Shown here in pieces: positions 61,023 to 62,760 of a stretch of 64,000 bases of DNA (position 1 is the stretch's first letter; each line of letters starts with the position of its first letter). The stretch lies in the sequence record NC_054912.1; one strand, 5' to 3'. The position numbers and the translations under genes are program-made. The stretch comes from Escherichia phage vB_EcoM_F1. The notes beneath the pieces are model-generated. The model worked only from the letters and a program-made list of their open reading frames with translations. It was not told where the DNA came from and did no database searches.

Positions 61023-61952
61023 ATGTCAGGATATAATTCTCAGAATCCAAAGGAACTCAAAGATGTCATTCTAAGACGTTTAGGGGCTCCAATTATTAAT
61101 GTTGAGTTAACACCCGATCAAATCTACGATTGCATCCAGCGTGCCCTAGAATTATACGGTGAATACCATTTTGATGGACTTAACAAAGGTTTTCATGTAT
61201 TTTATGTAGGAGATGACGAAGAAAAATATAAAACCGGAGTCTTCGATTTAAGAGGTTCAAATGTATTCGCAGTAACTCGCATTCTCCGCACGAATGTTGG
61301 ATCAATAACGTCAATGGACGGAAATGCTACATATCCATGGTTTACTGACTTTCTTTTAGGAATGGCTGGTATTAATGGTGGCATGGGAACTTCTTGTAAT
61401 AGATTTTATGGACCAAATGCCTTTGGAGCTGATTTAGGATATTTTACTCAGCTTACCAGTTACATGGGAATGATGCAAGATATGCTTTCGCCTATTCCAG
61501 ACTTTTGGTTTAATTCAGCAAATGAACAACTCAAAGTCATGGGAAACTTCCAAAAATATGATTTGATTATCGTAGAAAGCTGGACTAAATCATATATTGA
61601 TACTAATAAAATGGTTGGAAATACAGTAGGATATGGAACAGTCGGTCCGCAAGATAGTTGGTCATTATCTGAACGATATAATAATCCAGACCATAATTTA
61701 GTAGGTCGAGTTGTGGGGCAAGATCCAGATGTTAAACAAGGTGCTTATAATAACCGTTGGGTGAAAGACTATGCAACAGCTTTAGCTAAAGAATTGAATG
61801 GTCAAATTTTAGCACGCCACCAAGGTATGATGCTTCCTGGCGGTGTTACGATTGATGGACAACGTTTAATAGAAGAAGCTCGATTAGAAAAAGAAGCATT
61901 ACGCGAAGAATTATACTTACTTGACCCTCCGGTGGGAGTGTTAGTTGGATGA
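61023..61952 (+). CDS. 13: neck protein gp13
   Basis: 309 aa. Confidence 0.93.
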
Positions 61953-62410
61953 ATTATACTAAAATTTACAACTCTCTTATAGAAAGATCTCTTAAAAGAG
62001 GTCTTAATAAGAAAAAATTAGATTATTACACAGAATCACACCATATTGTCCCAAAATCCATGGGAGGAGATGATTCTAGAGAAAACAGGGTTTTACTGAC
62101 AGCAAGAGAACACTATTTTGCGCATGAGCTTCTTTTTAAAATACACCGAAATTCTGAAATGGCTTATGCCTTAATAAAATTCTCCAAGGGTACAAAAGAG
62201 CAGAGAATTGTAAGTAAAGATTACGGATGGATTAAAGAGGAAACATCTAAAATTAGATCAGAAACCATTAAAAAGTTTTGGGCGAATCTATCACCAAATT
62301 TAAAACAGGAACGAATTAAAAAAGCCGGAAAAGGCATTAAAAAACTAAATCTTTATGGACAGATGAAAAGAGAAAAGAAGTTAATGCAAATATTCGAAAA
62401 GCTTCAGTGA
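61949..62410 (+). CDS. HNH homing-endonuclease-like protein, N-terminal part
   Basis: 153 aa; HNH motif ...[34 protein letters not shown]. Confidence 0.65.
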
Positions 62411-62760
62411 AATATTTGGAATCGTTATCAGAAAACGAAATGTTAGAATATAAAGAAAGATGTTCTAAACAGATGAAAGATTTCTGGTCTGAGCTTAAAA
62501 GTGACCCCCAAAAATACGAAAAGTATTTAAATAAACTATCTAAAGGTCTTGCAAAAGTCGAAAAGAGAAATTGCCCGCATTGCGGAATTATATGTGATGT
62601 AGGAAATTATGGAAAATACCACGGCGATAAATGCAAAGTTATCACGGGTGTATCTCATAGCAGAGAAAAATTAAAATGCCCGCACTGTTCTAAAATCATG
62701 GATAAGTCTCACGCTAAAAGATACCATTTTGACAATTGCAAATTTAAGAAGGTCGAATAA
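62407..62760 (+). CDS. zinc-finger DNA-binding module, probable C-terminal part of the HNH endonuclease in the -1 frame
   Basis: 117 aa with two CPHC...H...C repeats; GTG start and no clear RBS; frame stays open about 30 nt further upstream. Confidence 0.5.

Follow-up and report, generated by a model that had tools for sequence, protein, structure and literature searches.

Between the neck genes 13 and 14, the window (the whole stretch of 64,000 nucleotides analyzed here) contains two overlapping reading frames of the same strand, and the question arises whether these represent two genes, a single gene that is read by recoding, or a single gene that has been broken. The section 61000-63600 of the window is 100% identical to positions 93000-95600 of record MZ170041.1 (Escherichia phage vB_EcoM_FN, Tequatrovirus; referred to as FN in the following). 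In T4, the gene 13 stop codon and the gene 14 start codon are separated by 1 nt, whereas in FN a cassette of 812 bp (61949-62760, + strand) sits between the two genes (see Table 1 for coordinates); an earlier note on this DNA, made from the letters alone, had described both genes as adjacent in T4 and had put the additional DNA at about 810 bp, and both statements proved to be correct. According to the explanation preferred here, to which a probability of about 0.8 is assigned, genes 13 and 14 are separated by a freestanding HNH homing endonuclease gene of the Mob type that was inactivated in FN by a genuine A7 to A6 frameshift. Such a case is the ordinary decay of a Mob-like homing endonuclease gene and involves no new mechanism.

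Table 1. Features of the gene 13/14 region of FN (positions of the window)
Feature	Position	Strand	Basis
Gene 13 (neck protein gp13, 309 aa), upstream host gene	61023-61952	+	ORF; gp13 annotation in MZ170041 and relatives; length as in T4 gene 13
Recoded 3' end of gene 13, GTGGGAGTGTTAGTTGGATGA (TTTGGAATTTTGGTAGGTTAA in cassette-less phages)	61932-61952	+	
ORF1, 153 aa: native residues 1-132 (HNH domain and first helical repeats), then 21 out-of-frame residues, TGA	61949-62410	+	
HNH catalytic core (E29, H31, H32, N46, H55, H59)	62033-62125	+	Invariant in 82- and 110-sequence alignments
A6 tract, frameshift site (A7 in intact alleles)	62339-62344	+	Alignments; repair by one A gives 270-aa ORF
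Second reading frame, native residues 133-270: helical repeats and two CCHC zinc fingers	62341-62760	+	PHROG 655 profile positions 150-234
Zinc finger 1 (C209, C212, H225, C229)	62572-62634	+	Beta-beta-alpha in AlphaFold2 model
Zinc finger 2 (C244, C247, H260, C264)	62677-62739	+	Invariant in 82 homologues; beta-beta-alpha in AlphaFold2 model
Cassette 3' end, putative AAGAAGG Shine-Dalgarno sequence and spacer for gene 14 (ATG 62762)	62746-62761	+	T4 junction comparison; function inferred
Gene 14 (neck protein gp14), downstream host gene	62762-63532	+	Pfam T4_neck-protein, E 1e-137; annotation

The comparison of the junction with T4 and other T-even genomes, which the earlier note had proposed, confirmed that the cassette is an insertion: It is absent in T4, T2, RB3 and GADU22, all of which possess the 1-nt junction, and present in 45 of the 508 T-even phage records that matched the region (~9%). 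In 42 of these 45 cassette-bearing records, the length of the cassette is 813 bp, i.e. in-frame, and all 813-bp copies that were read (seven of seven) consist of one 270-aa ORF; this applies to the cassettes of T6, ESh30, 215Ecol030PP, RPN226, sutha and one IMG/VR contig, which were aligned with that of FN (each 813 bp with a single 270-aa ORF). Besides phage T6, about 40 further records of Tequatrovirus carry the intact gene, and the presence/absence polymorphism of the cassette is typical of freestanding homing endonuclease genes. Orthologues of 52-57% identity (265-267 aa, single ORFs; P0002-P0004) are located directly 5' of gene 14 in divergent metagenomic T4-like contigs; their occurrence as single ORFs at the same site suggests that the endonuclease lineage is old at this position and that it normally comprises one ORF. 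The gene is freestanding, co-oriented with its conserved neighbors 13 and 14 and sporadic among close relatives, as is characteristic of the Mob family. In FN, the A6 tract splits the cassette gene, which is thus not an intact open reading frame but a pseudogene of this family.

The second reading frame of FN lies in the -1 frame relative to ORF1 (61949 mod 3 = 2, 62407 mod 3 = 1), as stated in the earlier note together with its two CPHC...H...C repeats, which were found at 62572-62634 and 62677-62739. This frame is open from 62341 onwards, with the result of a 70-nt overlap of both frames instead of the approximately 30 nt estimated before. According to the alignment of the cassettes, the lesion in FN consists of one missing A, i.e. 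six residues in a run that counts seven in the intact relatives. The shift had previously been assigned to the A-rich stretch gaaaagagaaaagaag (62366-62381) and has to be relocated to the A run at 62339-62344; the span that had been recommended for the inspection of raw reads (62330-62410) includes this true site. Restoration of one A in the FN cassette yielded a 270-aa protein that matches its counterpart in Shigella phage ESh24 at 100% identity, and the sole difference between the cassettes of FN and phage 215Ecol030PP is A6 versus A7. The two halves of FN matched consecutive segments of the PHROG 655 "homing endonuclease" profile (positions 27-156 and 150-234), which, together with the identity of the repaired cassette to that of 215Ecol030PP, argues for one gene that has been split very recently; the split is dated as very recent because the FN cassette is otherwise the same as its A7 twin allele. 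The proposal of a single, frameshifted freestanding HNH homing endonuclease gene is thus upheld by the 813-bp single-ORF copies, the PHROG 655 matches of both halves and the one-A repair.

The 270-aa ORF encodes, from the N- to the C-terminus, an HNH nuclease domain, helical repeats and two CCHC zinc fingers, both of which follow the pattern CPHC-x(12)-H-x3-C. The HNH nuclease motif that had been recognized in the first frame was substantiated by the profile searches recommended for both halves: ORF1 matched Pfam HNH_4 with 25.3 bits (cut-off 22) and PF01844 with 20.0 bits (just below the cut-off of 21.4), the catalytic and metal-binding residues were invariant in 82-110 homologues, and PHROG 655 was matched by both halves. 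The repaired protein was aligned to the PHROG 655 profile over residues 1-267 (E 2.7e-52), a sequence homology that points to membership among the T4 Mob proteins. At E<=1e-5, 419 homologous proteins were retrieved, many of them with Pfam HNH and NUMOD3 domains; in the cassette protein itself, Pfam PF07460 (NUMOD3 repeats) was not detected, and a sequence search of the PDB gave marginal HNH-motif matches only (E >= 0.076).

In the AlphaFold2 model (82-sequence alignment; pLDDT 91), the nuclease part contains an N-terminal beta-beta-alpha unit (strands 29-32 and 47-50, helix 52-66), the middle region is made up of five long helices (residues 89-202), and each of the zinc fingers is formed by two strands and one helix (finger 1: strands 206-208 and 215-217, helix 218-224; finger 2: strands 241-243 and 250-252, helix 253-263). 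The best matches in a fold search with the nuclease part were HNH nucleases, and CTCF zinc fingers were among the Foldseek matches. With its ligand pattern positioned on a hairpin and a helix, the modeled C-terminal region corresponds to CCHC/C2H2-like beta-beta-alpha zinc fingers that are predicted to bind zinc. Across the cassette copies, pN/pS in the intact frame was ~0.05-0.1 in both halves (N-terminal half: 12-14 synonymous versus 4 non-synonymous substitutions; C-terminal half: 9-13 versus 2-3); the low ratio and the excess of synonymous substitutions in both halves indicate that the full-length frame is under purifying selection in the cassette lineage.

A different view of the two reading frames is that of a functional split gene, in which the 153-aa HNH fragment and a separately started zinc-finger fragment cooperate or differ in their role. 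Indeed, the stop codon of ORF1 overlaps a GTG of the ORF2 frame (GTGA, 62407-62410), as would be required for e.g. termination-reinitiation, the two-ORF arrangement exists in several phages, and ORF2 is still intact. However, a Shine-Dalgarno sequence was found at none of the four candidate starts of ORF2, i.e. GTG 62407 (start of the longest ORF), TTG 62416 (GenBank start), ATG 62440 and ATG 62473, in line with the previous impression that the second frame has neither a convincing start codon nor a ribosome-binding site. The GTGA tetranucleotide is present in the intact alleles as well and is read through there as S-V-K; in consequence, it was not selected for coupling. The break at residue 132/133 lies inside a predicted helix (116-135), residues 133-153 are lost from both products, the integrity of ORF2 is expected anyway with zero substitutions since the split, and a two-gene architecture was present in no homologue family. 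The earlier note would have abandoned the single gene if related phages had the same two ORFs with independent, verified starts: such relatives do exist, but in none of them is an independent start verified or plausible. A functional split gene is regarded as the least probable of the readings weighed here.

As a second alternative, FN might truly possess A7 and an intact gene, with A6 being a homopolymer miscall in the deposited consensus. The lesion is indeed a single-base homopolymer change, and the remainder of the cassette does not differ from that of an A7 allele; FN contains another -1 frame break in a homopolymer within the same 64 kb (at 34592), and the UNVERIFIED record CJY920 contains a different indel (+1 A in a third A run) that is maybe of such origin. 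Illumina MiSeq reads (2x300, TruSeq Nano), by contrast, contain few errors at runs of 6-7 nt, and this platform, followed by de novo assembly, was used for FN (bioRxiv 10.1101/2022.07.04.498734). Furthermore, A6 was encountered in other sources: in Shigella phage SHFML-26, the cassette haplotype of which differs from FN at 7 sites; in vB_EcoM_F1, as judged from an annotated 153-aa product identical to FN ORF1 (F1 and FN originate from the same laboratory); in the independently assembled Logan contig of SRR12228473, which matches FN at 100% identity over 3.1 kb and maybe represents the same or a sister phage; and in a contig from a Copenhagen sewage metagenome with a SHFML-26-like cassette (2 differences) and flanks that are ~98% identical to either isolate. 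A7 partners of the A6 haplotypes are found in 215Ecol030PP (FN type) and in a contig of ERR8314753 (SHFML-26 type), the latter with another -1 event (A6 to A5) in a run 20 nt upstream. Scans of IMG/VR, JGI metagenomes and GTDB genomes for the A5-A8 junction retrieved one contig only (in two collections), with intact A7. A sewage scaffold (MUNK18, L025) that had been considered as a natural N-terminal deletion was discarded as probably chimeric, since its first 292 nt are unrelated DNA.

The quality of the FN assembly was assessed at the level of stop-to-stop ORFs, all of which were compared between the window and the homologous 67 kb in 215Ecol030PP; this ORF-split scan replaced a DNA-level listing of indels, which was dropped as too noisy owing to compensating gaps in divergent stretches. 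Only three genes are broken in FN, all of them accessory: the cassette gene, an e.2-like gene (T5 versus T6 at 34592) and a small ORF (11-bp deletion at 26836). Both homopolymer frame breaks are located in dispensable genes, which does not favor a sequencing or assembly error. Given the occurrence of A6 in other sources on different backgrounds and the MiSeq platform, the frameshift is most likely a real, recurrent replication-slippage mutation, and a miscall is considered improbable. Within the gene, the A7 tract exceeds all other homopolymers in length, and A/T runs of 7 occur three times in the 64-kb window. Instead of recurrence, a single origin of A6 with subsequent spread by recombination is possible, as the cassettes of FN and SHFML-26 are identical from position 174 to 537. 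The persistence of A6 in several backgrounds could mean that the allele is not simply dead.

The latter point leads to a third alternative, according to which the tract serves regulation: The full-length enzyme would be obtained from A6 by regulated or leaky recoding (a -1 slip of the ribosome or the insertion of an A by RNA polymerase), or a heritable A6/A7 ON/OFF switch would tune a potentially toxic nuclease. If the ribosome slipped by -1 on the codons AAA AAA, or if the mRNA contained an extra A, the product would be exactly the wild-type sequence GIKK/TKSLW; A-run indels recur in the cassette gene on several backgrounds, and A7 runs are rare (the three in 64 kb). Against such a function stand the in-frame length of 813 bp in 42 of the 45 records and the 52-57% identical orthologues, which are single ORFs without the A run; a conserved two-frame arrangement, as would be expected by comparison with dnaX, was not found among the homologues. 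The heptamer in the ORF1 frame is U AAA AAA and does not conform to X XXY YYZ, so that the P-site tRNA would mispair; a dnaX-type slippery heptamer in phase was not present, as the site reads U AAA AAA C with A AAA AAC out of phase. In addition, a downstream stimulatory RNA structure was not detected in 62300-62440, where the RNA around the A run folds no better than shuffled sequences (MFE -15.3 versus a shuffled mean of -13.9 kcal/mol; z -0.52), and upstream of the run there is no strong Shine-Dalgarno-like stimulator. For transcriptional slippage, a run of 6 A is short. Both a hypermutable contingency site that switches the endonuclease ON and OFF and a trickle of full-length enzyme by -1 slippage are considered very improbable; if one of these readings were true, A6 (Portugal, USA, Denmark) would represent a maintained, attenuated state of the gene and not a dead one. 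Among the three causes that had been listed at the outset, a decaying mobile gene thus fits best, a homopolymer sequencing error is unlikely, and a programmed shift is unsupported.

The inactivated homing endonuclease gene, as preferred here, is closely fitted into its operon. The last 21 nt of gene 13 differ from those of cassette-less phages by nine substitutions, which result in the exchanges F to V and I to V, three synonymous changes and TAA to TGA; correspondingly, the identity of gene 13 to that of T4 is 67% in the last 30 nt compared with 83-98% over the remainder. This recoded end was present in all of the cassette-bearing phages read (seven of seven) and in none of the four cassette-less ones (T4, T2, RB3 and GADU22, all with TTTGGAATTTTGGTAGGTTAA). 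When a construct that mimics precise excision of the cassette but retains the FN-type end was used as query, no cassette-less record of more than 93.8% identity was found among 716 full-length matches; the recoded end is thus strictly linked to the cassette. It contains a GGGAG motif (61934-61938) 10 nt before the ATG of the endonuclease, and this start overlaps the stop codon of gene 13 (ATGA); the recoded 21 nt appear to provide the ribosome-binding site and the start of the endonuclease. At the opposite end, the terminal cassette sequence AAGAAGGTCGAATAAT stands in place of the Shine-Dalgarno sequence of T4 gene 14 (GGTAGGT; the T4-type 13/14 junction sequence is CCTCCATTTGGAATTTTGGTAGGTTAATATGGCTAC). 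Scans for promoters, terminators and the T4 late promoter (TATAAATA) in or next to the cassette gave no signal above chance; a separately regulated unit was therefore set aside, and the cassette was treated as promoter-less, as is known from several seg and mob genes of T4 (PMC2988022). The recoded stretch may mark the target/immunity region of the enzyme or, alternatively, a co-conversion tract of the donor.

The closest T4 paralogue of the nuclease domain is MobB, with 50% identity over the first 111 aa; the cassette protein and MobB belong to the PHROG 655 family, and both genes are freestanding and co-oriented with their neighbors. In contrast, mobB is inserted between alpha-gt and alpha-gt.2, and the C-terminal DNA-binding part of the cassette protein does not align with MobB, which is listed as a putative, uncharacterised freestanding HNH endonuclease (Edgell et al. 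2010, PMC2988022, Table 1). At its usual site, mobB is lacking in FN. The nicking of target DNA has been reported for MobA-E (PMC13096335). MobE, an HNH protein encoded between nrdA and nrdB and the sole Mob protein listed as active, was taken as the mechanistic model: The cassette protein has 30-32% identity over 85% of its length to the T4-type gene adjoining nrdA, and both cases concern a promoter-less cassette in an operon with presence/absence polymorphism among T-even phages. The target of MobE is nrdB, whereas that of the cassette protein would be the 13/14 junction of the late structural genes; the cassette protein further differs in its two C-terminal CCHC fingers and degenerate helical repeats. 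The succession of an N-terminal HNH domain and extended DNA-binding repeats resembles that of I-HmuI and NUMOD3-containing HNH homing endonucleases.

Homing follows nicking by the Mob proteins. In the preferred explanation, the promoter-less endonuclease cassette is inserted exactly between genes 13 and 14, and its translation would be coupled to the late operon by the ATGA overlap and the Shine-Dalgarno sequence in the recoded gene 13, with its own 3' end serving gene 14. If the intact 270-aa protein behaves like MobE and the other homing endonucleases of T4, it would bind to the cassette-less 13/14 allele of a co-infecting phage via the helical repeats and the two CCHC fingers, the N-terminal HNH domain would nick or cut this allele, and recombinational repair would transfer the cassette, together with its flanks, to the recipient. 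In FN, the gene would have been inactivated by Streisinger-type slippage from A7 to A6 at its longest homopolymer, a lesion that is present, whether by repeated origin or by spread, in at least two haplotypes of the cassette and three genomic backgrounds. The products to be expected are the 153-aa HNH fragment, devoid of most of the DNA-binding part, and a C-terminal fragment that is formed in traces at best; as a result of the missing DNA-binding region, the FN copy should no longer home by its own activity.

The T4 rII and e genes are classical cases of frameshift hot spots at A runs that arise by Streisinger slippage. As in the cassette gene, one base is gained or lost in a run of 6-7 A, repeatedly in the same tract and in a T-even genome; those cases, however, are laboratory mutants, whereas the cassette represents a natural polymorphism in a selfish gene. 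The defunct gene of the T4 endonuclease I-TevIII represents the same stage in the life cycle of such genes, since T-even phages differ in whether their copy is intact, as in RB3, or inactivated, as in T4 by truncation (PMC2988022, Table 1). I-TevIII is intron-encoded and was inactivated by deletion, whereas the cassette gene is freestanding and carries a recent and reversible single-base frameshift.

In dozens of records, including T6, the cassette gene is annotated as "homing endonuclease" or "HNH endonuclease". A literature search for an endonuclease at the 13/14 site found no description, and no such enzyme is included for this position in the review of T4 mobile elements from 2010 (PMC2988022). 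The 13/14 endonuclease adds a new and uncharacterised protein to the Mob-like HNH family, and FN carries a fresh pseudogene of it; the present comparison documents this Mob-like lineage at the neck-gene 13/14 junction in T6 and in ~9% of the sequenced Tequatrovirus records and designates the last 21 nt of gene 13 as a candidate target or immunity region. In FN, the two "hypothetical proteins" QYW00525 and QYW00526 call for a joint annotation as a single homing endonuclease pseudogene with a frameshift, and the same holds for the corresponding ORFs of SHFML-26 and F1. The naturally occurring ON (A7, 215Ecol030PP) and OFF (A6, FN) alleles, which are otherwise identical, would be suitable controls for studies of homing, marker exclusion and phage-phage competition.

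The lesions found in other copies of the cassette differ from that of phage FN. In the Logan contig of ERR8314753 (L016/L024), the A-run matching window 62318-62323 was shortened from A6 to A5, and an in-frame ATT insertion (DYYYTESHH) was present as well; the copy of CJY920 (L006, an UNVERIFIED record) contained one additional A following CCCCC. The MUNK18 scaffold (L025), in which the 3' half of the cassette is fused to 292 nt of unrelated DNA, is probably chimeric.

Three metagenomic T4-like contigs (L018, L019, L020) carried orthologues of the endonuclease with 52-57% identity, likewise at the site preceding gene 14, but their link to gene 13 varied: L019 exhibited an ATGA overlap with gene 13, as in FN, and L018 and L020 a short spacer (TTTAAGTAT) after a T4-like gene 13 end (PPFGIL). 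As judged from these differing joins, the junction between gene 13 and the cassette has undergone repeated rebuilding.

The HNH endonuclease genes mobB and mobC, present in 215Ecol030PP, were missing from FN (867 bp and 698 bp of DNA at window 5399-5431 and 10223-10284, respectively), and tblastn revealed no further paralogue of the repaired endonuclease in the window. In consequence, the mobB and mobC sites of FN are empty, yet the 13/14 site is occupied but broken. Approximately 560 bp of FN, adjoining or falling inside the nrdD region, had no counterpart in 215Ecol030PP; the ORF of this segment, with its GIY-YIG-like N-terminus (FTYLVKFSNGDIYIGYKK), probably encodes another endonuclease, either freestanding or intron-associated (Rfam detected no group I intron at the gathering threshold within 10000-14000).

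Further features of FN in comparison with 215Ecol030PP
Feature	Window	Strand	Difference
189-aa ORF, GIY-YIG-like N-terminus	11728-12297	minus	in the ~560-bp segment absent from 215Ecol030PP
128-aa ORF, split	26584-26959	minus	11-bp deletion at 26836
e.2-like gene (162 aa), split into two ORFs	34396-34883	minus	T5/T6 indel at 34592

Two other genes of FN are broken. The split 128-aa ORF, the homologue of a T4 '14.6 kDa' protein, lacks 11 bp (GTATGCTTTGT) retained by 215Ecol030PP. The e.2-like gene, which adjoins a nudix hydrolase gene, carries FN's second −1 homopolymer frame break (T5 versus T6 in 215Ecol030PP); among the best 30 of the 440 records covering this region, the compared stretch measured 521 bp in FN and AV121 (OR352951.1) and 522 bp in the rest.
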